Source of the DNA: an uncultured Candidatus Saccharibacteria bacterium
GTDB lineage: Bacteria > Patescibacteriota > WWE3 > UBA101185 > UBA10185
Length of the DNA stretch: 64,000 bases
Assembly: GCA_964490125.1 (NCBI GenBank)
Contig: CAZBAJ010000002.1
Span: 23,011-87,010 of the forward strand
Direction of reading: 5' to 3'
The notes under the pieces were generated by a model that searched no databases, was not told where the DNA came from, and was given only the letters and a program-made list of their open reading frames with translations. Below are positions 10,507 through 27,084 of this stretch, piece by piece. The position numbers and the translations under genes are program-made. Positions within the stretch are counted from its first letter, which is position 1. The number at the start of each line of letters is the position of its first letter.

Positions 10507-12315
10507 CTACGCCTTGCCCGCTATCTCCAAAGTTGGGATAAGTTCCCCCCTGGCGTCTACCGCGGTAATAGCAAATTTTAGTCCGCTCTTATTTTCTTTA
10601 TCTACTTCTATTGTGTACGACCCGTTAATAAGTGGTGTGGTGATGGCAAATTTACCTTGGGTGCTGGTTTTTACCGCCCTAACCACCTCACCCTTTTGAT
10701 TTCTTATTACAACCACTACTCCAGGTACGCCCACTTTACTGTCCTGATAGCTGGTGGTCACCATACCCCAAACAATATTAGGTACGCTTGGCGCATCATC
10801 AATTTGCGCCGGTTGTAGGGGGATTGGTTGGGGCTGGACCCTGGGCTCGCTTTGTTGTAGTACTTGCGCCTTACGCAACCTTTCTTCCTCCTCGCGTTGT
10901 TTTTTAAGCAAATCTTCCTTTTGTTGTCGTAACGCTTGTTCCTCTTGGCGCAACTTTTCTAGTCGTGCTTGTTCCTTAAATGCGTCCTCTCTTGCCTTGG
11001 CTTCTCTTTCCCGTATGGCACTCTCCTCTGCCCGCTTTTTTTCCAAAGCATCTTTTTCCTGCTGGTCCTGCGCTAACGCACTCTGGGCAAGTTTTTTGGT
11101 TTCCTCCTCCAGCGCGCGTCTCCTGGCTTCCTCTTGCTCTTTTAGCTTTTGTGCGGAAATTATTTGTTTTTGGACAAGTTCTTTGCTTTTAACGGAGTTA
11201 ATGAGCGCGTCCAACTCATCAATCTTTTGCTTTTCTCCCGCCTCAAACTCCTGCTCTTGCGTGCTTTTTAGCGTGCGCTCGCCCCGGATGGGTAAAACAA
11301 TCTCCCCCCTACTTGCCTCTTGGGAAAGATTAATAAACATTCTGCCTGCCCGCATATCCGGCGTAATGGTTGGCGAGTAATATCTGTTTGTCACTTGCGG
11401 TTGCGCAGGTAGTTTATATGCCTGAGTGCTAGCTCTGGCTTTAATTATCTCAACGGGTGGTTCTTGCGTTGGTACAGAATTTTGAGACTCCGGTTGTTTC
11501 TGCATTTGGGGTTCTTGGTTTGGTTGGACGACTTGGGGAGACGGCTCCGCTTGGTGTTTTTGTTCCACGAGCGTGGTTGTGGGCATAGGTGCTTTTAAGT
11601 CCGCTTGGTCGATCGAAGATGTAGTTCCCACAGGTAATTCTAACCGGGTAAGACTTTGTTGGGGTTGAACGCCGGGAGCAGGATTTTCCTGATCGTAGTC
11701 CTCTATAACCGTGGTGGTAACAATAGGCATGCCCAGTCCACCACCACTGCCACCGGCATTAACATCCGTGCCAAAACCCAGTCCACCGCCTTGCCCAGAA
11801 GTTGGCCAGTAGCTTGCGTTACTGTACGCCTCTTTAACCTTTAAAATAAAACCTTTTTCGTCAATGTCTAATTTGTCCACCGGCGCCTCTTGTTGTTCCA
11901 AATACGCCTCAATTTTTCTGCGACTGCTGGTGGGCGTTAAGGTTATAAGTTCACTTTTTAAGACATCTAGGTTTTGGTACAAAAACACGCTAGGGATATT
12001 TTCTTCTTTGCGGTAGACAAATTGGTTGGGTAAAAACATGGCGCGTAAAAAATTAACGATCCAAGTGTCCAGCCCCCTGTCGCCCAAAGGTAAAAACGCA
12101 AAGGCTAAACCCGTCCCCACAAAGAAAATTACAAACAGCCACTTAAAAATGACGGCTTGAATAGTCATAAAGCTTAAATACGCCAGCCCGCAAAAAATCA
12201 TTAAAAAGAAAAACTGCTTAAGCGTGAGATCGCCAATAATTTTAAATTCCACCGACATAATTGATTGCGGAATAGCGTGTTGCTTGTTGGTAGTTTGTTG
12301 TTCTCTAATGGGCAT
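10507..12315 (-). CDS. T4SS-associated membrane protein: N-terminal PrgI/VirB3-like two-TM module (…LPLGDRGLDTWIVNFLRAMF), Pro/Gln-rich linker, long coiled coil, C-terminal small beta-sandwich domain
   Basis: Two N-terminal TM helices followed by the G-L-D-x-W motif seen in VirB3/PrgI-like proteins. E/R/K-rich heptad region. C-terminal GVVVVIRNQKGEVV...GSYTIEV. Confidence 0.45.
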   Translation of the reverse strand: MPIREQQTTNKQHAIPQSIMSVEFKIIGDLTLKQFFFLMIFCGLAYLSFMTIQAVIFKWLFVIFFVGTGLAFAFLPLGDRGLDTWIVNFLRAMFLPNQFVYRKEENIPSVFLYQNLDVLKSELITLTPTSSRRKIEAYLEQQEAPVDKLDIDEKGFILKVKEAYSNASYWPTSGQGGGLGFGTDVNAGGSGGGLGMPIVTTTVIEDYDQENPAPGVQPQQSLTRLELPVGTTSSIDQADLKAPMPTTTLVEQKHQAEPSPQVVQPNQEPQMQKQPESQNSVPTQEPPVEIIKARASTQAYKLPAQPQVTNRYYSPTITPDMRAGRMFINLSQEASRGEIVLPIRGERTLKSTQEQEFEAGEKQKIDELDALINSVKSKELVQKQIISAQKLKEQEEARRRALEEETKKLAQSALAQDQQEKDALEKKRAEESAIREREAKAREDAFKEQARLEKLRQEEQALRQQKEDLLKKQREEEERLRKAQVLQQSEPRVQPQPIPLQPAQIDDAPSVPNIVWGMVTTSYQDSKVGVPGVVVVIRNQKGEVVRAVKTSTQGKFAITTPLINGSYTIEVDKENKSGLKFAITAVDARGELIPTLEIAGKA

Positions 12316-12417: not shown

Positions 12418-13797
12418 TTATCTTCTACCGCCGGGTTTTTTAGGATCGCCGTTGATGAAAGTTTCGACCTTGCCCGGCAGTTTTAGTGCTTGGATATAAC
12501 CAAATATTAAAAATACGGGCGTGAATACTACAGTCAGAATGGTTGCAGATAGTCCTGGGGCGAAGGATGTGGAAACAGACCCCGCCATTTTAAGAATTAT
12601 CGCGTCCACAACAGCTGCCATTGCAAACAAAGCCACATAGCCCGCCACATAGGAGACCGCCTTCTTGAACCACGATTGCATAGAACTTTCGTTACCAGGT
12701 ATAGCGCCAATTGCAAACTGGATGGGTGCAAAAACTATAGAAAACACTAGCTTCAGCATCATCAGCCACGCTTTTATTATAATGAAGATTTTAAGCACGA
12801 GAATCACTAACGCCAGTACTGCAACAATAACTAAGCCGGGTATCCCCAAGGCAAGACCGCTAGACAGAAGGTCGACAAACAGTATGCCTATGAGAATTCC
12901 CGTAGCCGCACCTTTGGATAAACTCAATGAACTGTAGATTACACCCTCTATTATTTGGGAAAGGTAGTGCATGCTAGAAGCAAGAACTGCACCTATGGGA
13001 TAGCTAAAAACGATTAATATTACAGCTAAAGCAATTCTAGGTATGGCGTATTGGGCAGTAACTACTGCTTGTGGAGAAAGCTTTTTTCTTGTCATTATCA
13101 TAACACCCACAGTTAACATCACGATGGACAAGATACCAAAAGAGATGTTTCTAAAGATCTTCCATATTCCCAGTAACGGTTCCATAATAGCGGGTAAGGA
13201 TCCGTATGTAACATCGGCAGCTAAAGCACTTCCAGCGAGAGGAATGTTTTTTATGCTGTCGTTCCAAAAAAGTGCAAGGTTGACAGGTACAGGTTCGGTT
13301 TTAATTCCGCCCTCCAATGTGTTTGCGATACCCAGCAAAGAGCCTGCTGTTCTAGTTTTGGTGTATGATAGCATCCCGCCTTGGGTGTTTAGCGCGTAAT
13401 CGTATGTTTCTGTGAAGTCAGAGCAATCTGCGCTCGTGTTTAAAGAAGGACACGCCCCCCCAGCTCCTACCATCGCATCGGCCCTAGCCTCTAGTCCAGG
13501 GTTACCCGAGTTTTTGAAGGCGCTGTAGGAACATTCCACCATCTCACTGGGGTTTCTAGCCGCTATTAATTGTATAGGTCCATCTGTAAGCGCGGTGACA
13601 ATCATGTTTTGGACAGTTTTTCTTATATCCAGTGCTTTAAAGGCGTTACCGATTTTTTGGAATATCGTTTGATCGGGTTTGCATAGGGGGTTATCTGCGG
13701 CAAAAGCCCGACCACCACCAAATGTCAAAAGTGAAAAAGAAACCGCAACTGCAAAAAGAAGTTTTCTAGTCGTCATACCTAAAATAAAGTATTTCAC
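12418..13797 (-). CDS. VirB6/TrbL-like polytopic membrane protein (signal peptide, ~190-aa extracytoplasmic domain, about 6 TM helices)
   Basis: Topology matches the VirB6 family. First gene of the minus-strand operon ending in virB4. Confidence 0.4.
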   Translation of the reverse strand: MKYFILGMTTRKLLFAVAVSFSLLTFGGGRAFAADNPLCKPDQTIFQKIGNAFKALDIRKTVQNMIVTALTDGPIQLIAARNPSEMVECSYSAFKNSGNPGLEARADAMVGAGGACPSLNTSADCSDFTETYDYALNTQGGMLSYTKTRTAGSLLGIANTLEGGIKTEPVPVNLALFWNDSIKNIPLAGSALAADVTYGSLPAIMEPLLGIWKIFRNISFGILSIVMLTVGVMIMTRKKLSPQAVVTAQYAIPRIALAVILIVFSYPIGAVLASSMHYLSQIIEGVIYSSLSLSKGAATGILIGILFVDLLSSGLALGIPGLVIVAVLALVILVLKIFIIIKAWLMMLKLVFSIVFAPIQFAIGAIPGNESSMQSWFKKAVSYVAGYVALFAMAAVVDAIILKMAGSVSTSFAPGLSATILTVVFTPVFLIFGYIQALKLPGKVETFINGDPKKPGGRR

Positions 13798-13840: not shown

Positions 13841-16800
13841 ATGCCAAGTAGCAATCCGTTATGGTTTGGATATTATCCGGGTGATCGACCCATACCTAAA
13901 CGACCCGATCAGCGCTTTCCCACCCCACAAGTAGATATGAGCGATATGGGTTTGAACGCAGCGTTGGATGAGGCGATTAACGCAGTAGAAGCACCTGCTA
14001 ATTTACCAAAACAACTTTGGGATTGGCATTCAGCGGATTGGAAGCAGAAGTTTTTAGTAACAGGCGTCGCGTATAAGCAAAGTGGTGGGGAAATTCTTGA
14101 GTACGATCCTCAGGAAGGTGCAGATGTAAAAGGAGTAAATCCAGCCCTTAACCTCTACGGTTTGGTTACAGATCCCAAAAAAGAATTAGGCAAAATGTGG
14201 GGTACTATGATCAACCCACTTAACCCTTTTGCTGGTATGGGGACACTCGAGGGGGAGTTTTGGACGGATTTAGATACCACTGTGGAGAAGGATATGTGGT
14301 CCAGACTTTTGGGCTACAGGGGCTCGGCTGTAGGCGGTAGTGATCCTCTTGGTTACGCTTGGGCAGAATCGGCTTTTGCTGGACCGGGTGGTGCCAAGCT
14401 TAACTTAAAAGGCCAGGGAATCTATAAGGACGAAGTAATTTATGTTACCGATACCTCAGCAAGGGGTTTGGTCTCAGATAAATTAGCTGTTACAGGGAAA
14501 ACCGATGCTTACGACGAACTTGCAGGTAACATAATGGGTTTCGTTGCAGGCAAAAAATCTGTTATCAGAAGAAACCCATCCTTTACTTCAATGCAGACAT
14601 CGTTTATAGAAGCTGCTGCAACAGAATTAGGTCAAAAAAGAACCGCAATTAGAACTACGGCATTTGCTCACGGAGGTGCTGGTCTGGCGGACGGTATAGA
14701 TATACGAATTGCCGACTTCCTTTACGAAGCCGACATTATAACTAATCTCGAGGGTTTTAGTTCCGGGATGGCGAATTTTGGGAAATTAGTATCTAAGAAC
14801 GGTATAACCGGACCGGCAGGGAGTGCCCTGTACAGTGGAACCACCGATCTTGACGCCTCTGTTAGATCGATGAGGGACGCTATTGATGTGGCTAGAAATG
14901 GAAGAGGTCCGGTGCGCGGATTGTCGGTTCCTCAACGCGCTTTATTTGACAGAGATATTAAAGGTATAGAGGGGGTTTTGGATAGAGTAGAGGCTTTTAG
15001 CACTAAAATCAAAAACAACGGCTCTACATGGGTTCCTGGGATGAATGAGACTCAAGCCGTGTTAAGCGAACTAAACACGATAACCGGATCTTTAAATAAC
15101 CTGAGGTACGGTGCTGGTTCTCAGGGTAGCTACTTAATGTCTGTAACAAGAAGATATTTTAGAGGTGATGCGTCGCTTCTTAAAACAGGATCTTCTTCTT
15201 TGCTTGGTTCTGGTGGGGCACCGGGTCTTTTAACCGATGGGTATAAATCTTTAGACGCCCTTTACCCCTATCTAGAGCGGATGTACATGTATGAGGATGG
15301 AAGGGATATTCTGCAAACTATCGCCAAGGGAAACTTTCCAAAGGTCTACGCCTGGTGGGGTCAGATCAATGTAAGGGTTCAGCACTATACGCCAGCATAC
15401 TGGACGGGGAGAATCATGAATAGCACCCACATGCTTGGTTTAGACTACGATTCTGATTGGGATGGGCACGAGGTTCTTTCGATCTTTAAGCCGGGTAAAA
15501 ATCCGTTATTGAGACAAAATAAGTTTGATTTAAGTTATGCGACTATGGGAGGGTCTGTTTCCAAACTTCAAGTTAATGGGGGACTGTATCTAGGTACTGC
15601 TAATAACGCATGGAATGCCCTTACTGACGGAAAATTAGTAGGAATTGTAGGTGGCGGTTCTACAGCTTACGCAGGCACTGCAGTGCAAAAACAGGCATTT
15701 TTTGACTTTATTAACGGCAAAGGTAACGATTTCTTAACATCCAACGCCGGTATGTCGTATGTGGCAGTTTTTGGCAAAAACCCGACAAAAGGGCAAGCTC
15801 AAGCGCTGGAGTTTAAAGACTTTTTGGTCAGAAATTCCAGCCAACTAGGTTTGACCCTAACCGGCTCGGAAATCGCCAACACCCCCCAAAACGAAGTGGC
15901 TCTGAAAGATTTTTTTAAAGCCCTTAATCAGCACAAGGCCAACCCAGGCACTCTTGATTACACGGCTAAATATTTCGGTGGTTTGCAGTGGCTTTCTGCA
16001 AAGCTTACAGGCGTCCAGCAAATCATGTTTAACAAGGTAGGAAAGTTCTTTGCTCCTGTTGTTTATGCCAAGAACGCGATAATCAAAAAAGTAGCTGACT
16101 TTGGGGCAAAAGTAGCCGCCAAATTACTAGCCAAAGCTGGTATAACGGCTGCCCTAGGAGCGGCTACTGGAGGTATTGCTACAGTCTTGGCTCCGCTAAT
16201 AGAAAAAGTCCTTCAGGCTACTTTGTCAAAAATAGCAGACAAGAGCAAGGAGTTAATAAGAGCGGTTATCAAGGGAAATTTTACCCAAGCGCTAGACAAT
16301 ATGATGAACGATGCCATGAAGGCTACCGAAAAAGTAATTACCTGCGGTTGTTTTGTCCCATTATTTTTAGCCTTTGCCGGGTTTATGATGATGGCAAATA
16401 TAATAGTATCCATCTCGCCTGTGGATAGGGCTAAAAGCACCGCAAGTTCTGCATCCGCCGGTGGAACCCCCTTTACTACACCGCCTCCTGTTGCATCCGG
16501 CGTTAATTGTCCGCTTCAAGGTGCCAGTCTTACACTAGGTTCTTATACGGTAGGTGGCGGTTATGCCAACGCAGCAGGTCATGGTTCTAGATACTACTGG
16601 GAAAGAATATTTGGAGGTGGTACTACTTCTCTTTTTTCCATTCCTTATTTAGGTTCTCCTCGCGGATTTACCTGTCCAGGAGGATACTGTTCCCCTAATG
16701 ATTCCGCGCCGTATGAGGTTGAAAACCCCATGAACATGCCTGGCGCACCCTCTAAAGCTTTAAACTCCACGCCATACTATGGCTATGCGGGTGACTTTGC

Positions 16801-17119
16801 TAGCGGAAATCATAATGTAAACGCACCGGGGCGTATTTCCTGCGGGGGTGTTGACACGGCCGTTACTTCTTGGCAAGTTACCGGTACAGTTTCCACCAGC
16901 TATGGTTGTGGAGTAGTAATGAGTAGCACGCCCGCTAGATACAGAATATTTCTTTTACATTTAAATACCTGCGGTGGAGGTGGGTGTTCTTGTTATTCCG
17001 GAACAACCTATAATGCTGGCGATGGTATAACCACCTTATGGTCTACAAACCCGCATGTACACATAGAGCTCACGGATGCCGGTACCCCACAAAGACCAGA
17101 AAGTTGTGTATGCAGATAA
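13841..17119 (+). CDS. 1092-aa protein: large N-terminal region without signal peptide, TM segment near aa 830, Cys/Gly-rich C-terminal domain with M23/LytM-like HxH motif (TNPHVHIEL)
   Basis: Single long ORF divergent from the VirB6-like gene. C-terminal YRIFLLHL...GDGITTLWSTNPHVHIE resembles the M23 peptidase signature, but the first His motif is not evident. Confidence 0.35.
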   Translation: MPSSNPLWFGYYPGDRPIPKRPDQRFPTPQVDMSDMGLNAALDEAINAVEAPANLPKQLWDWHSADWKQKFLVTGVAYKQSGGEILEYDPQEGADVKGVNPALNLYGLVTDPKKELGKMWGTMINPLNPFAGMGTLEGEFWTDLDTTVEKDMWSRLLGYRGSAVGGSDPLGYAWAESAFAGPGGAKLNLKGQGIYKDEVIYVTDTSARGLVSDKLAVTGKTDAYDELAGNIMGFVAGKKSVIRRNPSFTSMQTSFIEAAATELGQKRTAIRTTAFAHGGAGLADGIDIRIADFLYEADIITNLEGFSSGMANFGKLVSKNGITGPAGSALYSGTTDLDASVRSMRDAIDVARNGRGPVRGLSVPQRALFDRDIKGIEGVLDRVEAFSTKIKNNGSTWVPGMNETQAVLSELNTITGSLNNLRYGAGSQGSYLMSVTRRYFRGDASLLKTGSSSLLGSGGAPGLLTDGYKSLDALYPYLERMYMYEDGRDILQTIAKGNFPKVYAWWGQINVRVQHYTPAYWTGRIMNSTHMLGLDYDSDWDGHEVLSIFKPGKNPLLRQNKFDLSYATMGGSVSKLQVNGGLYLGTANNAWNALTDGKLVGIVGGGSTAYAGTAVQKQAFFDFINGKGNDFLTSNAGMSYVAVFGKNPTKGQAQALEFKDFLVRNSSQLGLTLTGSEIANTPQNEVALKDFFKALNQHKANPGTLDYTAKYFGGLQWLSAKLTGVQQIMFNKVGKFFAPVVYAKNAIIKKVADFGAKVAAKLLAKAGITAALGAATGGIATVLAPLIEKVLQATLSKIADKSKELIRAVIKGNFTQALDNMMNDAMKATEKVITCGCFVPLFLAFAGFMMMANIIVSISPVDRAKSTASSASAGGTPFTTPPPVASGVNCPLQGASLTLGSYTVGGGYANAAGHGSRYYWERIFGGGTTSLFSIPYLGSPRGFTCPGGYCSPNDSAPYEVENPMNMPGAPSKALNSTPYYGYAGDFASGNHNVNAPGRISCGGVDTAVTSWQVTGTVSTSYGCGVVMSSTPARYRIFLLHLNTCGGGGCSCYSGTTYNAGDGITTLWSTNPHVHIELTDAGTPQRPESCVCR

Positions 17120-17140
17120 TTTTTGTGGTAGGTTAGATAT

Positions 17141-17638
17141 ATGAAAAAATTGACTAGAAAAAAGCTAATGTTATTTACCGGGTTGGGCTTGTTACTAGTC
17201 TTTGTTATTATAGCCATTCTAACATTAAGAAATAAGAAACCCGGTGTTGTTATTCCTCCCATCGGTTCTAGCGTCGTGCCTCCAGTTGTCACTACCGCGC
17301 CTGCGTTAACCCTAATAAGTGTAGATCCGCCTTCAGGTAAGCGGGAATCTATCGATGGTTTTACACCAACAGCATTTAAGTTTTCGGCGCCCGTGGATCA
17401 ATCGTCTGTAAAAGCTTCCACAAGTCCAACGAACCTTTTGCGTATCACAGTTTTTCCAGAAAAGCCCGATACAGTATTTGTAGAGCCACAAAAAACAGCA
17501 TGGCAAACCGGCGTCGAGTATGTTATTACCATCAAGGCTGGGTTAAGAGGTACTAGTGGTGAGGAGTTAAAAGAAGATATTGTATACAGTTTCTCCAATA
17601 CTCCTCCGGAATTTATTGAACTTACAAACCCTATTTAA
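17141..17638 (+). CDS. membrane-anchored Ig-like (Big-like) domain protein
   Basis: Signal-anchor MKKLTRKKLMLFTGLGLLLVFVIIAIL, Pro/Val-rich linker, ~100-aa beta-rich domain. Confidence 0.35.
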   Translation: MKKLTRKKLMLFTGLGLLLVFVIIAILTLRNKKPGVVIPPIGSSVVPPVVTTAPALTLISVDPPSGKRESIDGFTPTAFKFSAPVDQSSVKASTSPTNLLRITVFPEKPDTVFVEPQKTAWQTGVEYVITIKAGLRGTSGEELKEDIVYSFSNTPPEFIELTNPI

Positions 17639-17639
17639 T

Positions 17640-18122
17640 TTAAGGGGCGGAGACGCCAAATTTCTCCAGCAGTCGTGCAAGATTTTTGCTTAAAGTGTCA
17701 AACGGATTTAGAATTCCCGCGTCAAGCCCTAAAATATTTTTAAGAATTGTGAGGATAGTCCAAACTCCAATAACCACCAAAAATCCAACAAGCGCCATGG
17801 TTAAAGTTTGTTGGGACGCCTGCAAAGCCTTGGGGTCGCCCTGTGAAAGAGCGTATTTAATAGCGGCAACAAATACAAACATTACAAAAAAGGCGGCTGC
17901 GGAGTAGACAAAAACATTCATCAATCTGGCAATTGGACAAAGTATTGCCATGGGCGATGGCGCCTTTTCCCAGTTTGTACTTTCTAACTCTGCGCAGGTG
18001 CTTTGGTAGACATTGTTCACCCCGGCATGGGCTGGATTAGTTAGTCCAACAAACACCGTCATACAAACTACAAATAATGTTAGTGTTTTAAAAGTTTGGT
18101 GTAGCATTCCACAAGTCTCCAT
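17640..18122 (-). CDS. T4SS pilin-like two-helix hairpin protein (paralog A; track start 18134 is a TTG, ATG at 18122 or 18107)
   Basis: Signal peptide, then TM1-IKYALSQGDPKALQASQQTLTMALVGFLVVIG-TM2. Motif shared with paralogs B-E. Confidence 0.5.
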   Translation of the reverse strand: METCGMLHQTFKTLTLFVVCMTVFVGLTNPAHAGVNNVYQSTCAELESTNWEKAPSPMAILCPIARLMNVFVYSAAAFFVMFVFVAAIKYALSQGDPKALQASQQTLTMALVGFLVVIGVWTILTILKNILGLDAGILNPFDTLSKNLARLLEKFGVSAP

Positions 18123-18435
18123 AATCCCCGCCAATTACATTAAAGACAATAGTTTTTACAGTAAAGGCGCCTATAGCCAAAACAAAAGCTACTACAGCAA
18201 AAGTTAGTGCTTGTTGGGCGGACGCTTTGGCTTTGGGGTCGCCTTTGGCGGTTACAAATTTTATGCCCGACATAATAATGGCGATAATAGAGATGGCTAA
18301 AGTTACACCTAGTAGAATATTTAGTCCCACTCCTAAAAAGTCGCTTACATTATTATAACCCGCGGTTCTGTCGGGGGCGTTAGGCGCCCAAGGTTTTAGG
18401 AATTGAAATACATCATTATCTGCTGCGTAAACCAT
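18088..18435 (-). CDS. T4SS pilin-like two-helix hairpin protein (paralog B)
   Basis: TM1-SGIKFVTAKGDPKAKASAQQALTFAVVAFVLAIG-TM2. Architecture like VirB2/TrbC. Confidence 0.5.
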   Translation of the reverse strand: MVYAADNDVFQFLKPWAPNAPDRTAGYNNVSDFLGVGLNILLGVTLAISIIAIIMSGIKFVTAKGDPKAKASAQQALTFAVVAFVLAIGAFTVKTIVFNVIGGDYGDLWNATPNF

Positions 18436-18493
18436 AACAAAGCTAGAATGACATAAAAGGGCGTATTTTGCAATAATTTTTAAGGACGACTAA

Positions 18494-18517
18494 AAACCCC
18501 GCCTGTTGGCGGGGTTT
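18494..18517 (-). terminator. rho-independent terminator (aaaccccgcc-tgtt-ggcggggttt followed by a T-run on the minus strand)
   Basis: Perfect 10-bp GC-rich stem plus TTTTT, read between pilin paralogs C and B. Confidence 0.6.
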
Positions 18518-18540
18518 AAAAGTCAAATTAGACTAATGGC

Positions 18541-18894
18541 TTAGTAATCTCCGTATCTGACAACATTTCCTACATCAAGATTACCGGTTTTTCCGATAAC
18601 ATTAAGTAAAATTGTTCTAATAGTGAAGGCGCCAATAACTACAATAAAACCAATTACTGCATTGGTAAGGGATTCCCTAGCAGCACCAGCGGCTTTCTGA
18701 TCTCCTCTAGCTGTAATGTACTGAATACCACCAAGAATCAAAAAGATAATTGTGACAGCAATACCTACACCCAATACCACATTAACTAAGAAACCGAACA
18801 CATCGGCAAGGTCGTTAAATGGAAGGTTAATTCTTTGTGCGGTCCTTGCTGTTTCCGCAAAAACATAGCCTGTTAAAACATCCAAATTTGTCAT
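18541..18894 (-). CDS. T4SS pilin-like two-helix hairpin protein (paralog C)
   Basis: …GGIQYITARGDQKAAGAARESLTNAVIGFIVVIGAFTIR… 157 nt identical to paralog D. Strong SD ggaggggaggtg upstream. Confidence 0.5.
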   Translation of the reverse strand: MTNLDVLTGYVFAETARTAQRINLPFNDLADVFGFLVNVVLGVGIAVTIIFLILGGIQYITARGDQKAAGAARESLTNAVIGFIVVIGAFTIRTILLNVIGKTGNLDVGNVVRYGDY

Positions 18895-18921
18895 TAATGG
18901 TTACACCTCCCCTCCAAACCG

Positions 18922-19272
18922 TTAGAAGTTTACAATCTCATTCACTTTTAATTCAGCCTCGTTGGTTCCACCTATAACATTAATAAGAATAAGCCTAATA
19001 GTGAAGGCGCCAATAACTACAATAAAACCAATTACTGCATTGGTAAGGGATTCCCTAGCAGCACCAGCGGCTTTCTGATCTCCTCTAGCTGTAATGTACT
19101 GAATACCACCAAGAATCAAAAAGATAATTGTGACAGCAATACCTACACCCAGCACAACATTAATAAGGAACCCAAAGACATCTGCTAAATTATTGAACGG
19201 TAAATTTATTCTTTGGACAGTAGTGTTGGTAGCTGCCTGTACAAACCCCGTTATAAGATCTTGTAGATACAT
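18922..19272 (-). CDS. T4SS pilin-like two-helix hairpin protein (paralog D)
   Basis: Near-identical core to C, differing at the N- and C-termini. Confidence 0.5.
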   Translation of the reverse strand: MYLQDLITGFVQAATNTTVQRINLPFNNLADVFGFLINVVLGVGIAVTIIFLILGGIQYITARGDQKAAGAARESLTNAVIGFIVVIGAFTIRLILINVIGGTNEAELKVNEIVNF

Positions 19273-19304
19273 AATTTTCCTTTCTTAAAATTTGTCTAAA
19301 TTTA

Positions 19305-20042
19305 CTATGTACTAAACGGATCGGTGTCTCCGGTGATAAGGGCTTTTATAATTACCCTTAAGATGGAAACCGCCATCAATACAAATATTAAGCCAATTAT
19401 TGCGGATGTCAAGTTTTCTTTGCCGGTCTGAAGTTCTTGGGGGTTTCCTTGACTGGTCATTATTTTGTAGCCAGCCAGGATGATGATGAAAATTCCCACT
19501 ATAATTATGATGGGGATCATAATTCCGTTGATAAGGTTAAACAGCTCGATTAACTCGTCGTTCGCGTCCTCACAGGTACAGGTTTGACCGGGTATTGTGC
19601 CAGACACTTTAGGAAATTGACCGGGATTACAGTTTTGTGTAACACTTCCGCTCGCGTCTACTGCGCAGGTGCCTGCAGGCAGACCCCCTCCGGGTGGTGG
19701 TGCTGGGGGCGGTACAGCTGGAACACCCACACTTACGCATAAGCCTGCAAAAGTGCACCTGTAGAGAAGATTTGGCATAGGCGATGTTTGTGAACATTCT
19801 GCGGGTACAGTTGTACGCAAGAACGCTTCCACCCAACCCTTAAATGTTGCGGGACAGGCATATCCGGGATCACAGTTTTCAGTTACCGACGCACATGCTG
19901 GCCATGGAGGGTTGCTTACAGGTCTAGTACAATCGACCGCAACACACTCGTTAACTGCGTGAACCGCATTGTTTTGACTTAAACCGAATAAAACCGTTAA
20001 GATAAAAGTTACGCCAATCTTGCGATAAACATGCAACTTCAT
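19305..20042 (-). CDS. pilin-like protein with N-terminal secreted Cys-rich/Pro-rich domain fused to the hairpin module (paralog E)
   Basis: Signal peptide, about 14 Cys, PPPAPPPGGG, then TM1-AGYKIMTSQGNPQELQTGKENLTSAIIGLIFVLMAV-TM2. Confidence 0.45.
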   Translation of the reverse strand: MKLHVYRKIGVTFILTVLFGLSQNNAVHAVNECVAVDCTRPVSNPPWPACASVTENCDPGYACPATFKGWVEAFLRTTVPAECSQTSPMPNLLYRCTFAGLCVSVGVPAVPPPAPPPGGGLPAGTCAVDASGSVTQNCNPGQFPKVSGTIPGQTCTCEDANDELIELFNLINGIMIPIIIIVGIFIIILAGYKIMTSQGNPQELQTGKENLTSAIIGLIFVLMAVSILRVIIKALITGDTDPFST

Positions 20043-20113
20043 GTTAAGATTATCCTTATCCTTGTTCTAATAGTCAATGCCCGTGCAGAAAATCCTGTTA
20101 TAATAAGTCCGCC

Positions 20114-21976
20114 ATGCCCAAAAGAATCGTACAAATAGTAATTTTATTATTTTTAATCGCCGTCTTGATCCCATCGTTAACAAGTGTTCTTCTGTCGCCC
20201 GTAGGTATTATCTTGTCGCCCAACCAGACCAACCCGTCTAGCCAAACCAACTTAATCACCAGTCTTACAAATATTACTATCACCAAAACCCACGCGGAGG
20301 ATTGCAGTTCCGTGGAAGAATGCGCCAAAGAAATGGAAAAATATAGCTCCAAACTGGCAAAAACCAAAAGTCAAATTACCGCCATCGACGCCCAACTTAA
20401 AGATTATTTAGCAAAACTTAATGTTACCGACGCGCAAATAGACGGGCTAAAAAAAGACATTGCAAAAGTAAGCTCGGAGCTTGCGGTGTTGGAGGAAAAT
20501 TTGGCCGACAGACGGGGATCGCTTAGCAAAAAGACGGAGGTTCGTAATACTATTGTCCGTGACTTTTATAAATTTGGCAGACCTTCTGTTTTGGAGTTAC
20601 TACTTGCGGGCGGTGGGAGTGTTAATTCTGGAAAATCGTCCGGAGGGGGTTTAGCAGGTTTAGCTGGCGGACAGGTTTTTGCCGTGCGCGATATTTTTGA
20701 AGACACCGTGGGGCGGGAAGCTGTTAAGTCCATTATTTCTTTAAATATGGAGATTGCGGATTTTGAGGGCGACAAAAAAGAGGCAAGTGAGTTACGGGCA
20801 AGTTTAGAATCGTCTCAAAGAAAATTGCTATCTTTAAAAGCGGACATTGACGCAAAAAAGAAGGACGCGCAGGCAGACTTGGCGGATTTGGAGAAAAAAG
20901 AAGTGTCGTACGAAAAAGCGTTAGCGGAACTTTCTGCCAAGCAGCAACAGATTCTAGCGGAAAAAGCCGGCGACGATAGCGGAAGCGTTGGAGATTACGA
21001 ACCGCCCGAAGCAAAATTGCCATCGCCCAAATTTAGTCCAGCCTATGTTGCTATAAGTTACGGGGCGTACACGCACTATAAAGGTATGAGTCAGTACGGG
21101 GCTAGGGGGCGGGCGCAAGATGGTCAGGATTACAAGGCGATTCTAAAGTTTTACTACAAGGCGGGGACAAAAAAGGTGGATATGCCCAGTATTACAGTTT
21201 CCGGCGTGGGAAAAATGGACATGCAAAAGTATTTGTATGGGATTGCAGAAATGCCTAGTACCTGGCCTGTTGATGCGTTAAAGGCGCAAGCGGTGGCGGC
21301 TCGTACTTATGCGTATAGATACGCTAAGGATGGTAAGACTATTTGTACCACACAATCGTGCCAGGTGTTTTTAAAATCTAAATCCGACAACCCCCCGTCA
21401 GCCTGGAAAAAAGCCGTAGACGATACTGACGATGTTATTTTGGACAGCTCGGTGATTGCGTATTATTCCTCTACTACCGGTGGTTATATTGAGGGAATAG
21501 GTTGGGATAGTAAGGGCGACTGGCCAAACGGGGCTTATGAAAAGCGCGCGGGTTCACCGTGGTTTTATAAAGCGTGGTGGACAAAGTCGTACAACGATAG
21601 TTCTAATTGTGGACGGAGCGATCCGTATTTGTCGCAGGAGGAAATGGCGGACATTTTAAACGCGGTGACGGTTTGGGAAAAAGGCAGTTCCGGTGACCGC
21701 GACCGGATTTCCCCCGTGACTACAAAGTGTTGGGGCGGGAATCCGTTTTCTTTGGACGGCATGAAGGAAAAGGCGGACGATTTGGGGACAGCGTACGGGA
21801 GCGTGAGTTCTGTGGATGTAACAATTGGTAATAATGGCAGGACTACCCAGGTTAAGTTGGGGACGGACAAAGGGACGGTTACTATTGACGGGGAAAAATT
21901 TAGAACTGTATTTAATTTACGCGCCCCCGGATACATATCTATTAAGAACCGTTTGTACGATTTGGTGAGAAAATAG
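20114..21976 (+). CDS. SpoIID/LytB-domain peptidoglycan lytic transglycosylase with N-terminal TM anchor and coiled coil
   Basis: C-terminal YLYGIAEMPSTWPVDALKAQAVAARTYA is the SpoIID/LytB signature. N-terminal heptad-rich region. Confidence 0.65.
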   Translation: MPKRIVQIVILLFLIAVLIPSLTSVLLSPVGIILSPNQTNPSSQTNLITSLTNITITKTHAEDCSSVEECAKEMEKYSSKLAKTKSQITAIDAQLKDYLAKLNVTDAQIDGLKKDIAKVSSELAVLEENLADRRGSLSKKTEVRNTIVRDFYKFGRPSVLELLLAGGGSVNSGKSSGGGLAGLAGGQVFAVRDIFEDTVGREAVKSIISLNMEIADFEGDKKEASELRASLESSQRKLLSLKADIDAKKKDAQADLADLEKKEVSYEKALAELSAKQQQILAEKAGDDSGSVGDYEPPEAKLPSPKFSPAYVAISYGAYTHYKGMSQYGARGRAQDGQDYKAILKFYYKAGTKKVDMPSITVSGVGKMDMQKYLYGIAEMPSTWPVDALKAQAVAARTYAYRYAKDGKTICTTQSCQVFLKSKSDNPPSAWKKAVDDTDDVILDSSVIAYYSSTTGGYIEGIGWDSKGDWPNGAYEKRAGSPWFYKAWWTKSYNDSSNCGRSDPYLSQEEMADILNAVTVWEKGSSGDRDRISPVTTKCWGGNPFSLDGMKEKADDLGTAYGSVSSVDVTIGNNGRTTQVKLGTDKGTVTIDGEKFRTVFNLRAPGYISIKNRLYDLVRK

Positions 21977-22140: not shown

Positions 22141-22968
22141 ATGGATACTCAAATTATAACCAAACTTCATAGGAACTTTGAATCCTGCGTACATAAGGAT
22201 GGCGATCTTGAGTATTGGTTGGCTAGAGATTTGCAGGTTTTGCTAGGTTATGATCGTTGGGAAAATTTTCAAAATGCTGTCGACAAGGCTAAGATTTCTT
22301 GTGAAAAGGCTAAACAGCAACTTTCCGATCATTTTTGTGACACTTTAAACACATATACAAGCGGTAAAGGTGCTACCAAATCAGTAAAAGATATAATGCT
22401 CACCCGCTACGCCTGTTATTTAATAGCCCAAAACGGTGATCCTAAAAAAGATGAAATCGCTTTTGCTCAAACTTATTTTGCCGTCCAAACCAGAAAGCAA
22501 GAAGTTATTGCCCAGCACTTGGGAGACTATGAGAGATTGCAGGCAAGAAGTCGTCTAACTGCGTCAGAAAAGAAACTTTCCGGGGTAATTTTTGAGCGAG
22601 GTGTGGATCATCGGGGTTTTGCCCGTATTAAAAGCAAAGGCGACGAGGCATTGTTTGGTGGATTAAATACCCAGGACATGAAAGATAGGCTTGGAGTTCC
22701 CGATAAGCGTCCGTTGGCAGATTTTTTGCCCGCGGTAGTAATTTCCGCCAAAGATTTAGTCAACCAAGTTACCAGCTTTAACATTAAGAAAAATCCAAAG
22801 TTGGTTGGAGAAAAACCTATTTCTGTCGAGCATGTCAAAAATAATACTAATGTGCGTGAGATGCTTAAGAAAAGCGGTGTTAAGCCAGAAGAATTGCCTC
22901 CGGAACAGGATATTAAAAGGCTGTCGTCTAAGATGAAGACTTTAGAAAAGGGAAAGTTGCTGGGATGA
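22141..22968 (+). CDS. dinD: DNA-damage-inducible protein D (BRO-N/KilA-N like)
   Basis: Colinear with E. coli DinD: GDLEYWLARDLQVLLGYDRWENFQNAVDKA, MLTRYACYLIAQNGDPKK and AQTYFAVQTRKQE blocks. Same length of about 275 aa. Confidence 0.75.
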   Translation: MDTQIITKLHRNFESCVHKDGDLEYWLARDLQVLLGYDRWENFQNAVDKAKISCEKAKQQLSDHFCDTLNTYTSGKGATKSVKDIMLTRYACYLIAQNGDPKKDEIAFAQTYFAVQTRKQEVIAQHLGDYERLQARSRLTASEKKLSGVIFERGVDHRGFARIKSKGDEALFGGLNTQDMKDRLGVPDKRPLADFLPAVVISAKDLVNQVTSFNIKKNPKLVGEKPISVEHVKNNTNVREMLKKSGVKPEELPPEQDIKRLSSKMKTLEKGKLLG

Positions 22969-23021
22969 ATGCCGGGCAAGTTTTTTTGACATTATAAATA
23001 ATATTGCATAGAATACAAAAT

Positions 23022-23306
23022 ATGCCTCAATTACAGATAGAGCCTAAAAAAGAAATCACGGAGCCAAATTTGGCGTATCTTGAAGTTGGAAGCCTCTCAC
23101 CGTTAGAAAGCGTGGAAAAATTAGTTGCTAGAGCGGGTTTAAATTATTTTAGTAGAAAGGACGACATGGTAGACAAAAGAAAACTTGCATATTTAGAAAA
23201 AGCCGGTGGTTCTTGGGCAAATATTAAAAACATTGATAAAGTGCAGAAAAAGCTTAGAGCAAATGACCTAAAAAATACCAGGAGAATGAGGGAGCGTACC
23301 TTTTAG
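23022..23306 (+). CDS. putative antitoxin paralog (MPQLQ… start shared with the 23556 antitoxin), upstream of a decayed vapC
   Basis: N-terminus and 5' DNA similar to the 23556 gene. 3' end overlaps the vapC remnant in typical TA fashion. Confidence 0.35.
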   Translation: MPQLQIEPKKEITEPNLAYLEVGSLSPLESVEKLVARAGLNYFSRKDDMVDKRKLAYLEKAGGSWANIKNIDKVQKKLRANDLKNTRRMRERTF

Positions 23307-23445
23307 ACACCGATGTTTTACGGACGCGACGATTGCAGCGACGGCTATTTACAAGCGGATAGCGTTAATAACCGCTAACACCAAGCATTTTGAGAAAATA
23401 GATAATTTAGTTTTACACACCCCCGACGATTGGGATTTTTCCTGA
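23297..23445 (+). pseudogene. decayed PIN-domain (VapC) toxin gene: N-terminal fragment YLLDTDVL… in one frame joined to C-terminal fragment …IAATAIYKRIALITANTKHFEKIDNLVLHTP in another, with an internal deletion
   Basis: Translated manually. The C-fragment is paralogous to the intact VapC at 23939 (SAIAATAMFMDAELATINTKDFYRIKGL). No start codon. Frames differ. Confidence 0.45.
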
Positions 23446-23555
23446 CCGCCCATCTTATCAGGATAGTCATTGTTTCAACATTTATTTTGATTCGCCGACA
23501 CGAGCGTAGCTAAATAGTTATTGACATTGTAGAGTAGGCGTATTAAAATCCTACC

Positions 23556-23945
23556 ATGCCACAGTTACAAAAAGAATCACAAAAAATTACCATCGCGCAG
23601 TTTGCAAAGCAGTTGCCCGGTGTACTTATAAGCGTTATAGAGGATAGGCAGCCCTTGGGGTTTTATATCCAAGTAGGTAGTTATCCAAGCAACCTAGTCG
23701 AACTTTCTTTGAAGAGTGTTCAGAAGAAGTTACCTAAAGATCCAACCCGCACTATAGGATCATACAAGAAACTGTCGACCGGTCACGATCCGGAAAGCAA
23801 GTATGAGATGAAGCAGAGAGCGTGGAGAAGAAAGCTTTTTCAAGAGACGAGTGGTGCCATAAAAGATACCGAGAAGTTGGATAAAGAACTAAAAGCCAGA
23901 AGAATCAGTGAAACTGCCGCCTCAAAAAGGTTGGCAAAATGGTAG
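23556..23945 (+). CDS. antitoxin of the VapBC pair
   Basis: 129 aa. 7-nt overlap with the downstream PIN toxin. Confidence 0.45.
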   Translation: MPQLQKESQKITIAQFAKQLPGVLISVIEDRQPLGFYIQVGSYPSNLVELSLKSVQKKLPKDPTRTIGSYKKLSTGHDPESKYEMKQRAWRRKLFQETSGAIKDTEKLDKELKARRISETAASKRLAKW

Positions 23946-24364
23946 TCGTAGATACAAATATTCTTATAGATAACTTAAGAACTCAAGGAAGGTCTCCCAT
24001 TATCACTAAACTTTCGGATAGCTACTCCACCCGTGATCTATATGTTTCCGTGATAACAATCCACGAGCTTTTTGCCGGCGATAGTGCTGACGATGAAGAT
24101 GCGGTATTAAAAATAAGAAAGACGCTTATTCCATTTACGATTGTTACGTACGGTCAGCAAGAGGCGGAGCTTGCTGGTAAGTTAATTAGGGACGCCAGAA
24201 AATATGGACAGATACTCCATGTGGCTGATTCGGCTATTGCTGCTACGGCAATGTTTATGGATGCCGAGTTGGCAACAATTAATACCAAAGATTTCTACAG
24301 AATCAAAGGATTGAAGCTAGTAGATTTTGCCGAGCTAAAGCCCTTAAAATATGCGCGGATTTGA
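23939..24364 (+). CDS. vapC: PIN-domain toxin VapC
   Basis: MVVVDTNILID… and the D…E…D acidic residues of the PIN fold. 141 aa. Confidence 0.75.
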   Translation: MVVVDTNILIDNLRTQGRSPIITKLSDSYSTRDLYVSVITIHELFAGDSADDEDAVLKIRKTLIPFTIVTYGQQEAELAGKLIRDARKYGQILHVADSAIAATAMFMDAELATINTKDFYRIKGLKLVDFAELKPLKYARI

Positions 24365-25952
24365 TTTTAAGATAAGTTATAGCAGAATTGTGCTTATAGC
24401 GACTGTTCTTTTTGGAATTTTTGCGTTATTTAAATCCCCGGGCGATCCGGATTTTGGTTGGCACTACAAATATGGAGAGTACTTAATTCAGCACGGGCAA
24501 ATTTTACGCGCCAACATTTTTTCCTACACTTTTGCGGATTATCAATGGGCTAATTCGTATTGGATTTCTCAAGTCGCCATTTATTTGACGCACCATTATT
24601 TAGGACACTTGCTGGCGGGACTGTTGTTCGCTCTACCGTTGTCTTTAGCAACTGTTTATTATGCCCGTGCGCTTGCCAAAAATCTATCCTCTGGAATAAT
24701 TTTGACAACCTTAGTCACGGTAATGTTATTTGTAGAGTCTTCCGGCAGCGGAGTCATCGGTCGTCCAATGTATTATAGTAGTTTATTGTTAATGTTTTTA
24801 TGCGCGACGCTTTTGCATTCAGACGACAGTATCAAGCGAATTTGGATTTTACCGCCACTTTTTTTAATTTGGGCAAACACTCACGCGGATTTTGTTCTAG
24901 GGCTTTTTATACTAGGACTGTATGTTTTTGACAAGTTTGGTGTGGCAGGATTTTTTGCAGGACCTTTGAGCCCCGCCCTCAAAAAATTGACCAAATGCTT
25001 TTGGCGGGGCGAGGCGGAGCGAGCTGGGGTTGTAGATGTGAATCGGCAGGAAGCTTTAGCGAGCGTTCCTAAAAAAACCCTGCCACACCTGTTTAATTTC
25101 GTACAAAAACCTTTGCCACTTGTTCTTATAGCGTCAACATTGCTCACACTAATAAACCCTTTTGGCGTTCATCTGTGGGTTACGCTTATTAAAGAGTCGC
25201 ACCCGTACCAATTTAGCCACATTAACGAATGGGTGCCCGTGGCAACGGACAACATTTACTATTTTGCGGTTTACTGTGCCGTTTTGGGTTTGCTGGTTTC
25301 CGCTTTGGTTGGCGCGCGCCAAAAACTCCCGCTTTGGTACATGTTGGCGGTAGGCTTTTTTTGTATTTTTGCCGTTAGAAGTCAATATTTTTTCCGAATT
25401 GCCGTTATTTTAGGTGCGTACGCGGTATTGGTTTTTTGGACGCCTTATTTTGTCGACTTAAAATCTGCGCTCTCTGTTAATCTGGTTAAAAAAGTGCGAC
25501 TTGGTTTTTTGGCGTTTCTAATTTTGTCGACTTTAATAATTTCCGCTATTTTTGTTACCGAAGTTCGCGAATCAACCGACAACGCCTATTGGATAGAAAA
25601 GCAAAGTTACCCGCAACAATCATTGGATTACGCTCTTGCTAACGGCGTTAACGGCAATGTTTTTAATTACTACGGTTGGGGTGGCTATATGATTTGGAAA
25701 TATCCGCAAGTTAAAACTTTTGTGGATGGACGCATGCCCTCGTGGCGTGAAAACGGTAAATCTGTGTTTGAGGATTATATTAAACTTGTGGATGCTCCAC
25801 GAAGTAATCTTGAGCTTTTAAATGTTTACAATGTTTCGTGGGTCATTTATCCAACGGAAAGCAAATTTACAGCTTATTTAAAATCATCCGGCGATTGGCA
25901 AGAGATTTATTCTGACGACACCGCTACAGTTTTCATTCGTCGAACTCTTTAA
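24351..25952 (+). CDS. polytopic membrane protein, GT-C-like fold suspected (function unknown)
   Basis: 533 aa, at least 10 TM. N-terminal GDPDFGWHYKYGEY loop motif reminiscent of membrane glycosyltransferases. Confidence 0.35.
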   Translation: MRGFDFKISYSRIVLIATVLFGIFALFKSPGDPDFGWHYKYGEYLIQHGQILRANIFSYTFADYQWANSYWISQVAIYLTHHYLGHLLAGLLFALPLSLATVYYARALAKNLSSGIILTTLVTVMLFVESSGSGVIGRPMYYSSLLLMFLCATLLHSDDSIKRIWILPPLFLIWANTHADFVLGLFILGLYVFDKFGVAGFFAGPLSPALKKLTKCFWRGEAERAGVVDVNRQEALASVPKKTLPHLFNFVQKPLPLVLIASTLLTLINPFGVHLWVTLIKESHPYQFSHINEWVPVATDNIYYFAVYCAVLGLLVSALVGARQKLPLWYMLAVGFFCIFAVRSQYFFRIAVILGAYAVLVFWTPYFVDLKSALSVNLVKKVRLGFLAFLILSTLIISAIFVTEVRESTDNAYWIEKQSYPQQSLDYALANGVNGNVFNYYGWGGYMIWKYPQVKTFVDGRMPSWRENGKSVFEDYIKLVDAPRSNLELLNVYNVSWVIYPTESKFTAYLKSSGDWQEIYSDDTATVFIRRTL

Positions 25953-25980
25953 AAGTAAATTATTATTGTAGTATCTAGGA

Positions 25981-26214
25981 TTACCATTTTTCTGCTTTTT
26001 TATGGGCAGAAATTCTCTCAAAACTTTTTCTTTCTAGGTATTCTTTATACGCTTTTTCTCCGCCAAGTCCTTTAGTTTTAGTTAACCATGTATCCTCAGC
26101 AGATGTTTTTGAATGTATTTGAGGTAGAGATGAAGAATCCGCAAAAGATTCCATGCTTGGTCTAATTCTGGGTCTGTAATATTTTTGATCGTTTTCTAAC
26201 TGCGTCTGCAACAT
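25981..26214 (-). CDS. small basic hypothetical protein
   Basis: 77-aa ORF. Only ORF in this gap. Confidence 0.25.
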   Translation of the reverse strand: MLQTQLENDQKYYRPRIRPSMESFADSSSLPQIHSKTSAEDTWLTKTKGLGGEKAYKEYLERKSFERISAHKKAEKW

Positions 26215-26293
26215 TTTTCTATCCTACCACTTGCGTTGTAGTGTGTCAAAGCCAGCTGTGTATAAAAGTGTATAATAAGTATATAATAAGTAT

Positions 26294-26857
26294 ATGTCAG
26301 CCTTACTGGGAGCCTTTATTAAAAAACCGCGCGGTGTGTACTTTGATGGTCAGGACAACGAGGAAGAAATTCTGTTATTCATGCGCCAGCATGTCGTCGT
26401 CAACCTAAAATGGATTCTAATTACCGCCATACTTTTTTTTGCCATTCCTATTTTGGACTTTTTTCTAGCCATGGGTAATACCAGCGTCGCCCAGCTTCTC
26501 CCGTCAAATTACAACTTTATAGTTAGATTTATGTTAGGGCTTTTTACCTTTGGCTATTTTTTTGAAAACTTTTTAAGTTGGTATTTTAACAGTTATATTA
26601 TTACCAACAAGCGCGTGGTTGACATAGATTTTTACGGCATTACGCACCGCAGATTTTCCGAGGCGCCACTACGCAATATAGAAGATGTCACTAACGACAT
26701 TTCTGGCTTTGCGCAAGTAGTCTTTCACTTTGGCGATGTGTCCATTCAGACCGCCGCGGAAGCCAGGGAAATTACTTTTGAAAATGTTCCCAACCCAGAT
26801 CGCGTTCAGGACATGCTATCCGACCTTATTTCCGCCATCAAAGGAGAAAGCGAGTAA
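26294..26857 (+). CDS. membrane protein with bacterial PH (bPH_2/YdbT-like) domain
   Basis: Two TM helices, then the IITNKRVVDIDF…FGDVSIQT pattern. Confidence 0.4.
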   Translation: MSALLGAFIKKPRGVYFDGQDNEEEILLFMRQHVVVNLKWILITAILFFAIPILDFFLAMGNTSVAQLLPSNYNFIVRFMLGLFTFGYFFENFLSWYFNSYIITNKRVVDIDFYGITHRRFSEAPLRNIEDVTNDISGFAQVVFHFGDVSIQTAAEAREITFENVPNPDRVQDMLSDLISAIKGESE

Positions 26858-27084
26858 TATGTTTCAACCGTGGGAGAATAATTTTCTGCTGGTCATTAGT
26901 AAAATCTTTTTTATGGCAATTTCTGTTATTTACGCGGTTTTTGCCTTTATGGTCGTCCGCCAGGTTAGTCTCATGAACAAAAGCTTTACCAGCTCGCTTC
27001 ACAGCTTTTTTACTTTTTTAGCGTGGGTGCATTTTTTTTGTCGCCCTGCTTGCCGTTGTGCTGGTTTTTCTTGTCCTGTAGCCT

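Follow-up and report, generated by a model that had tools for sequence, protein, structure and literature searches.

The 64,000-nt stretch of Patescibacteria DNA analyzed here (contig CAZBAJ010000002.1, positions 23,011 to 87,010; hereafter the window) carries five consecutive open reading frames (ORFs) on its minus strand at positions 17640–20042, in the gene order E-D-C-B-A. We assign this array to PF18895 (T4SS_pilin), as the 'T4SS pilin' subunit set of a chromosomal type IV secretion system (T4SS) of candidate division WWE3 (Patescibacteria, or candidate phyla radiation, CPR). A sequence-only reading of the same DNA had described five minus-strand hairpin proteins, and the ORF list, an alignment and hydropathy profiles bear this out. 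All five paralogs align as a unit of a first transmembrane segment (TM1), a short loop with the motif GD[PQ]K, and a second transmembrane segment (TM2). Each has two hydrophobic stretches, with an extra N-terminal signal-like stretch in A and E alone.

PF18895 was the top Pfam match for all five proteins. Scores above the gathering cut-off of 26.6 bits were obtained for E (19305–20042, 245 aa, 35.9 bits), D (18922–19272, 116 aa, 31.7 bits) and C (18541–18894, 117 aa, 33.4 bits), and sub-threshold scores for B (18088–18435, 115 aa, 18.4 bits) and A (17640–18107, 155 aa, 19.7 bits). On sequence grounds A and B are to be read as divergent members of the hairpin family and not as outsiders, because the alignment and a hidden Markov model (HMM) built from the five proteins tie them to C, D and E. 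The 152 homologues found for C, the candidate major subunit, lie within WWE3/Patescibacteria and all belong to PF18895, which is matched by 50/50 of its aligned relatives. Paralog A is listed from a TTG at 18134 in the ORF list, but its most likely start is the ATG at 18107, because a GGAG precedes it, it runs into the final codons of B, and the resulting 155-aa protein is the form present in a public protein collection. All five proteins are also encoded on a 162,429-bp NCBI contig, where D has an identical counterpart. The overlap with the end of B suggests translational coupling.

AlphaFold2 models C as a helical hairpin whose helices span residues 29–61 and 66–100 (predicted local distance difference test score, pLDDT, 77 overall and 85–94 in the core), and the C-terminal part of the E model has helices at 160–196 and 201–237. 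Both models thus have the two transmembrane helices and short loop of PF18895, and hydropathy concurs. Signal peptides were called by inspection and hydropathy only, in agreement with the sequence-only reading: present in A and E, absent from B, C and D. That of E spans about residues 1–29 (VHA|V). In A, the signal peptide (AHA|G) precedes an ectodomain with two cysteines, and the protein continues beyond the hairpin in a C-terminal extension. In B, C and D, a (V/A)-x-A context resembling a signal-peptidase site is found near the N-terminus (B 18424–18435, C 18856–18894, D 19234–19272), and residue A13 of C is near-invariant, with Ala in at least 90% of 50 sequences. The leader before this context is 4–17 residues long and has no hydrophobic core.

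Identical cores and mosaic tips

Paralog D, the upstream member of the C/D pair, and paralog C share a tract of 157 identical nucleotides that encodes TM1, the loop and TM2, at 18995–19151 in D and 18617–18773 in C, both on the minus strand and offset by 378 nt. The length of this identity is as first reported, while its position lies one base lower than the 18618–18774 and 18996–19152 given at that time. The aligned C and D genes (330 positions) show 76 differences, none of them within the tract, and in 200,000 permutations no run of 157 or more arose (longest 59; P < 5e-6). In the flanks, 24 of the 35 codons that encode the same amino acid in both genes differ synonymously, which is nearly saturated; the core has one such codon among 52, and it sits on the tract boundary. 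A nucleotide-level constraint, such as an embedded RNA or regulatory element, was considered as the cause of the identical core and rejected: among the comparison sequences (labeled L001 and so on), the L003 and L004 orthologues encode a protein core exactly as in C, yet their codons for it differ from those of C at numerous synonymous sites. L001 has recognizable tips of both the D and the C type, and the duplication therefore predates that split. Taken together, the sequences indicate a recent gene conversion of the hairpin core on an old C/D duplication. Where the sequence-only reading had offered 'recent duplication or gene conversion', it is the conversion that finds support in the contrast between flank and core synonymous sites, and the duplication that proves not to be recent.

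The same pattern is found elsewhere. Both copies of L033 share a 194-nt identical core, and in L010 (WWE3 UBA1401) two C-type paralogs with different tips (6007–6360 and 7333–7683) share 197 nt. The L010 pair is non-adjacent, with two other pilin genes between its members, and conversion is therefore not limited to adjacent copies. Shorter identical tracts are present in L014 and L001.

A perfect repeat of this kind could have arisen in assembly, if a single gene was mis-expanded or two strain alleles were stitched in tandem; the C/D pair itself, or the complete identity of its cores, would then be an artefact. The Logan contig L044 (run SRR11845627), compared with window positions 16580–19299, is 100% identical over 2.3 kb apart from a fusion of D with C across the repeat, which removes exactly 378 nt and yields a chimera of the D N-tip and the C C-tip with its junction at the 157-nt repeat. 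Likewise, the one-copy contig L031 is an exact fusion of the two L033 copies with 100% identical flanks, and the L035 scaffold has Ns inside the repeat. Assemblers therefore struggle at this repeat. However, the expected error is collapse of a repeat and not its expansion, and the window contains a unique junction of D-tip, 27-nt spacer with GGAGG (18895–18921), and C-tip that no single-copy genome could supply. D followed by C in tandem, with matching tip types, is found in L001 and L002, from two JGI samples, and arrays with two copies sharing an identical core recur across independent lineages and assemblies (L033, L034 and L010). We conclude that the two-copy state is well supported and that an artefact is very unlikely. 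The one-copy forms L044 and L031 may reflect either real deletions or a collapse during assembly. CPR metagenome-assembled genomes probably under-count pilin copies through collapsed or gapped assemblies, the alternative being a real 1-to-2 copy polymorphism.

The tips on either side of the core behave very differently from the core itself. Across 58 C/D-type proteins, mean identity is 94% in the core, 53% in the N tip and 52% in the C tip, and N-tip and C-tip identities are weakly correlated (r = 0.18). All four combinations of the window's two N-tip and two C-tip types are found in other sequences. Some pairs of proteins have an identical C tip and core with N tips that are 38–41% identical, and the converse is also found. 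Such assortment of tips reads as a signature of recombination through the conserved core. The earlier suggestion of surface variation gains support from these mosaic tips, which a filament made of these proteins would display at its surface. They parallel the hypervariable N- and C-proximal regions of Anaplasma VirB2 paralogs (PMC3556328), whose diversity near both termini led to the proposal of a surface organelle that varies antigenically (PMC3556328; PMC12102498). The multi-copy VirB2/TrwL arrays of Anaplasma phagocytophilum and Bartonella likewise consist of tandem pilin paralogs with a conserved hairpin. In contrast to the present array, they are genuine PF04956 VirB2 proteins of diderm intracellular animal pathogens; in the present case another bacterium is the likely target, and core homogenization by gene conversion and tip reassortment are directly visible.

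The largest departure from the shared architecture is the head of paralog E. A Cys-rich head and a PPPAPPPGGG linker had been noted, and both are present, but with 12 cysteines, not about 14, and in an ectodomain of ~130 aa, not 150. All 12 cysteines fall within residues 33–157, and the ectodomain contains 20 prolines including those of the linker. Alignment with 36 relatives, together with a 13-sequence alignment, divides E into zones. The N-terminal module (about residues 30–110) is Cys-rich and modeled with low confidence by AlphaFold2 (pLDDT below 60). After the linker comes a conserved 4-Cys module (about 125–159), predicted as a small β-sheet running straight into TM1 (pLDDT 86–89), and then a highly conserved hairpin with an ITGDxDPF tail. 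The N-terminal Cys-rich part ranges among relatives from absent to about 250 extra residues, and across loci the first gene of the array encodes 132–613 aa. When the E head alone was searched against 1.84 billion representative proteins, essentially only its own cluster was returned, with no functional clue. The head is therefore modular and specific to its lineage, which is what one would expect of a part used for host contact or adhesion.

Two predicted transcription units in a chromosomal T4SS cluster

The array had been proposed not to form a single transcript, with a terminator splitting C from B. The comparative data strengthen this proposal, as the position of the terminator is conserved in four other lineages. 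The intrinsic terminator after C lies at 18492–18517 on the minus strand (stem AAACCCCGCC/GGCGGGGUUU, loop AACA, then a U-run), and the C-B spacer folds with −23.9 kcal/mol (z = −2.65). A GC-rich hairpin followed by a U-run is found at the equivalent site in L001, L003, L027 and L033, with different stem sequences. Upstream of E, a predicted minus-strand promoter at 20049–20077 (TTGACT, 17 nt, GATAAT; a 10/12 match) has its −10 element ending 6 nt before the E ATG, and ATTGACTA and AAGGATAAT are invariant across five lineages. A promoter-like element for B-A on the same strand (18445–18473; TTGCAA, 17 nt, CATTCT) ends 9 nt before the B ATG; in the alignment its TTGCAAA and TG.CA.TCT are invariant across five lineages, consistent with a putative promoter function. 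The conserved terminator, the two conserved promoters and the A/B overlap together make two operons the most likely layout predicted from sequence, with E-D-C running from promoter to terminator and B-A having its own promoter and overlapping genes. D, C and A have GGAG-type ribosome-binding sites. The divergent SpoIID gene on the plus strand has a TATAAT about 9 nt before its start at 20114. The conserved −10-like hexamers 6–9 nt before the ATG of E, B and SpoIID suggest leaderless mRNAs, and the first gene of each unit (E and B) and the SpoIID gene may therefore be leaderless.

Next to the array lie the genes of a T4SS. A VirB4-type ATPase is encoded on the minus strand at 7693–9780 (P-loop_TraG 108 bits; NF045971 conju_CD1110 371.8 bits, cut-off 325). 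It is followed, on the same strand and in order of position, by a 233-aa TrsD/TraC-like protein (9787–10488) that resembles the N-terminal part of VirB4 (TrsD 36 bits, cut-off 200; Mbov_0397 over residues 106–233), and whose orthologues carry PF26593 TraC-like. Together these two genes (7693–10488) match NF045975, the VirB4 of mycoplasma integrative and conjugative elements (ICEs); the 233-aa protein matches the N-terminal part of that profile only, as if VirB4 had been split. The next minus-strand gene (10507–12315) encodes a PrgI (VirB3-like) membrane domain (29.1 bits, cut-off 27; transmembrane segments within residues 26–79) joined to Ig-like domains. It is followed by a 459-aa polytopic membrane protein (12418–13797, minus strand) with at least five hydrophobic segments within residues 214–440 and a conserved position. 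Profile searches with the latter gave no family hit, and topology and position make it a VirB6/PrgH-like candidate.

On the plus strand, 13841–17119 encodes a 1092-aa protein of no known family, with syntenic counterparts of 1015–1083 aa. It has two hydrophobic segments (about residues 768–861) followed by a ~230-aa Cys-rich C-terminal domain, and all 12 of its cysteines are at residue 835 or later. No match was found in Pfam, NCBIfam or PDB sequences, and these searches give no support to an M23-type peptidase (HVH motif) in the Cys-rich C-terminus, an assignment that we rejected. The protein could be a T4SS-associated surface or effector protein. The syntenic genes bordering the array are also on the plus strand: a membrane-anchored Big_5 Ig-like protein (17141–17638; 24.5 bits), convergent with A, and a SpoIID-domain protein (20114–21976; 68.9 bits) with an N-terminal anchor and coiled coil, divergent from E.

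The cluster is origin-proximal, with VirB4 starting at 7693, about 5 kb from dnaA (1476–2939) and dnaN (6527–7657); yidC lies between these two genes (5274–6047). The rest of the scanned window is housekeeping in content (tmRNA, ftsH, pentose-phosphate genes), and the ORFs scanned, to about 55 kb, showed no domain of a relaxase or of a coupling protein (T4CP). Independent WWE3 contigs keep the gene order SpoIID, E, (D), C, B, A, Big_5, a ~1000-aa protein, a ~460-aa protein, PrgI, TraC-like and VirB4. A scan of species-representative genomes gave 23 loci across WWE3, Woesebacteria and Dojkabacteria; in nearly all of them the HMM built from the five window proteins detects arrays of 2–10 paralogs, the array of 10 being in a Woesebacteria genome. 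Orthologues of each window paralog are present in these arrays, and those of B are clear in all relatives. This makes the five types old and specialized and not the product of a recent burst.

Filament subunits or membrane components

The system to which this locus belongs is already described in the literature, to which the locus adds a WWE3 example. Quinonero-Coronel et al. (2025; PMC12102498) describe a T4SS specific to Patescibacteria that is related to the MPF_FATA systems of monoderms, often lies close to dnaA and usually lacks a relaxase; with PF18895 and PF04956 they detected 441 VirB2-like arrays of 2–11 genes, with a mean within-array identity of 25% and a maximum of 54%. The present locus has the corresponding features: a monoderm-type VirB4, a location near dnaA and a tandem array of five. 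It shares with the published arrays (Southlakia epibionticum ML1 SEML1_0006–0019, Nanosynbacter lyticus TM7x and the 441 arrays) the PF18895 family, tandem sets of 2–11 divergent hairpins beside VirB4, PrgI and (here as a candidate) VirB6-like genes, a chromosomal position near dnaA, and no relaxase or coupling protein seen. It differs in belonging to class WWE3, whereas those arrays are from Saccharimonadia or Microgenomatia, and in the 79% identity of C and D with a 157-nt perfect core, against at most 54% within published arrays. The accessible text of those accounts makes no mention of mosaic tips, of an internal terminator and promoter, or of modular first-gene heads. What the present analysis adds is evidence that the core evolves in concert while the tips reassort, a layout in two operons, a resemblance to an ICE family of Mollicutes, and a warning that assemblers collapse arrays with identical cores. 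The locus is also a clean WWE3 example with an interpretable layout: two conserved transcription units, one subunit with a head, a candidate major subunit present in duplicate, and two putative minor subunits.

Few machines have been shown to be essential for the epibiotic lifestyle of Patescibacteria, and this T4SS with its pilin array is one of them; Wang et al. (2023; PMC10633639) showed it for the epibiotic growth of S. epibionticum. A 2025 review raises the possibility of a pilus-like conduit built by this monoderm T4SS (PMC12857230). Reasoning by analogy, we lean towards a model of this kind, in which PF18895 hairpins are polymerized into a pilus-like conduit by the WWE3 T4SS. Each protein would sit as a two-helix hairpin in the cytoplasmic membrane, its short basic GD(P/Q)K loop facing the cytoplasm and its two ends the exterior. 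E and A would have their larger Cys-containing ectodomains exported via Sec signal peptides, and B, C and D would expose short N-tails only. The VirB4 ATPase, with the PrgI/VirB3-like and VirB6-like proteins, would then pull hairpins from the membrane and polymerize them into a conduit to the host cell, as in VirB2/TraA and the archaeal Ced/Ted systems. C and D would presumably be the major subunits, the head-bearing E a tip or adhesive subunit, and B and A minor ones. The tips would be surface-exposed and under diversifying selection, with co-assembly keeping the cores identical. Termini and core do appear to follow different evolutionary rules, fast divergence and reassortment in the one and concerted evolution in the other, which is the expectation if the termini are exposed on a polymer.

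Several points weigh against a filament, and in particular against a VirB2-type one. B, C and D have no canonical signal peptides, in contrast to VirB2/TraA. PF04956 (TrbC/VirB2) scores reach 12.1–16.3 bits for four paralogs, against a cut-off of 27.9 bits, and there is no PF04956 match for A; among the 50 relatives of C, 12 match PF04956 at E ≤ 1, no oftener than they match unrelated membrane families. Profile-profile comparison by hhalign of the C family, or of the five paralogs, with a purpose-built alignment of genuine VirB2/TrbC (eight proteins from Ti-type and other MPF_T plasmids) gave probabilities of 0.7–0.8%, with both query alignments being shallow (Neff about 2–3). The C-family profile against all PDB sequences returned spurious matches only. 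When the models of C and E were run through Foldseek against the PDB, no match had E < 0.4, and those reported were generic helical hairpins. The nearest curated family outside Pfam is not a known pilin but a protein of Mycoplasma ICEs, NF045849 ('Mbov_0395 family pilin-like conjugal transfer protein'), whose hosts are, to our knowledge, not known to make pili. Nor do we know of a filament seen so far for any PF18895 protein. A review compares the small membrane proteins of mycoplasma ICEs (CDS13, CDS15) to VirB3. Finally, the assignment of major, tip and minor roles is pure inference.

The term 'VirB2-like' was the starting description of the array. It stands insofar as PF18895 is the best hit for all five paralogs, with three passing; it fails for PF04956, which none of the five passes, and for VirB2 homology, which was not detected. 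Because PF04956, hhalign, and the PDB profile and fold searches show no link, it is an analogy of architecture and context, not a demonstrated homology. The analogy itself is considerable. The diderm TrbC/VirB2/TraA proteins (PF04956; A. tumefaciens VirB2, RP4 TrbC, F TraA) are also hairpins of two helices, ~70 residues long, with a short basic loop and with VirB3/VirB4-type genes adjoining, and E and A have cleavable-looking signal peptides as well. Set against this are the absence of significant sequence, profile or fold similarity in the searches above, a monoderm host, five paralogs in place of a single gene, the lack of long leader peptides in B, C and D, and the 130-aa Cys-rich head on one paralog. 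The only pilin in the Foldseek output was the archaeal conjugative pilin of the Aeropyrum pernix pilus (PDB 8dfu), likewise a hairpin pilin served by a VirB4-type machine in a cell with no outer membrane. Its TM-score normalized to the target is 0.61–0.63, but its E-values of 2.9–7.2 are non-significant, there is no sequence similarity, and a two-helix hairpin is too simple a fold to discriminate.

The similarity to NF045849 is more consistent. All five paralogs match nearly the whole 80-position profile, at 35.9 bits for E, 31.9 for B, 25.1 for C, 23.3 for D and 17.0 for A (E-values 4e-9 to 3e-3). The equivalog cut-off is 40 bits, which no paralog reaches, and by these scores the five are best regarded as a related family and not as members. 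The Mbov_0395/MMCAP2_0565 family likewise comes from monoderm hosts with MPF_FATA-like systems, and the neighbors of the present array hit NF045975. Mycoplasma ICEs differ in being mobile and conjugative, with a VirD4 homologue (CDS5) and a DDE transposase (CDS22); here the cluster sits on the chromosome and showed neither a relaxase nor a coupling protein, and the NF045849 scores are below the cut-off. The consistency of the match to the Mbov_0395 family raises the tentative possibility that monoderm MPF_FATA-type systems had the hairpin subunit ancestrally and did not borrow it from diderm T4SSs.

This similarity also favors the strongest competing explanation, in which the hairpins are non-filamentous channel or assembly components in the membrane of a monoderm T4SS, like the mycoplasma ICE or VirB3-like proteins. 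The paralogs would then serve as specialized stators or adaptors, with direct contact to the cell wall or the host made by the E and A ectodomains. Besides the match of all five to NF045849 across nearly its whole profile, the missing relation to VirB2 by HMM, hhalign or fold speaks for it, as does the statement that Gram-positive T4SSs generally have no pili (PMC12102498; PMC10633639). However, a separate PrgI/VirB3-like domain is already encoded at 10507–12315; copy number, hypervariable tips and modular heads better fit the exposed subunits of a polymer; and NCBI itself names NF045849 'pilin-like', with the scores here falling below its cut-off. We therefore regard a purely membrane-embedded role as rather unlikely.

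That the five are unrelated small membrane proteins of a mobile element (holins, phage or plasmid proteins) is scarcely credible: tandem small two-TM proteins, with a BRO-N protein and a PIN toxin 2–4 kb away, are what one might expect of such an element, but no paralog has a PHROG match at E ≤ 0.01, there is no endolysin neighbor, the context is housekeeping (dnaA, dnaN, yidC, tmRNA, ftsH), synteny extends across a whole class of bacteria, and PF18895 is matched. The lack of a PHROG hit and the conserved chromosomal synteny effectively refute a holin or phage origin. The HMM search that the sequence-only reading had proposed as its check came out as predicted for PF18895, and its holin alternative received no support from PHROG.

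Returning to the filament model, the conserved core might also act as a recombination hinge, through which expressed paralogs, adjacent or not, convert their cores, swap tips and shift between one and two copies. We put this forward tentatively, as a possibility more doubtful than probable. If true, it would provide episymbiotic WWE3 bacteria with combinatorial surface variation of an essential host-contact organelle, serving host range or the evasion of phages or of host defences. The locus offers concrete targets: a C/D filament and the E head for structural work, and surface variation for population genomics.

Other features of the window

Beyond the SpoIID gene, the interval 24351–28872 holds conserved proteins of no assigned role (a 533-aa protein, bPH_2, DUF5657 and a 595-aa protein) that are syntenic beside the T4SS in relatives and may be further parts of the apparatus. 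Between SpoIID and these next syntenic genes sits a block at 22141–24364 consisting of a BRO-N protein (22141–22968), a small ORF (23556–23945) and, downstream of it, a PIN-domain toxin (23939–24364). The same interval in L001 and L003 is without the block, which therefore suggests a small mobile or toxin-antitoxin insertion. Three AAA_14/DUF4143 ATPase paralogs (3104–4333, 31243–32460 and 33755–35116) lie within 32 kb of what is a very small genome.

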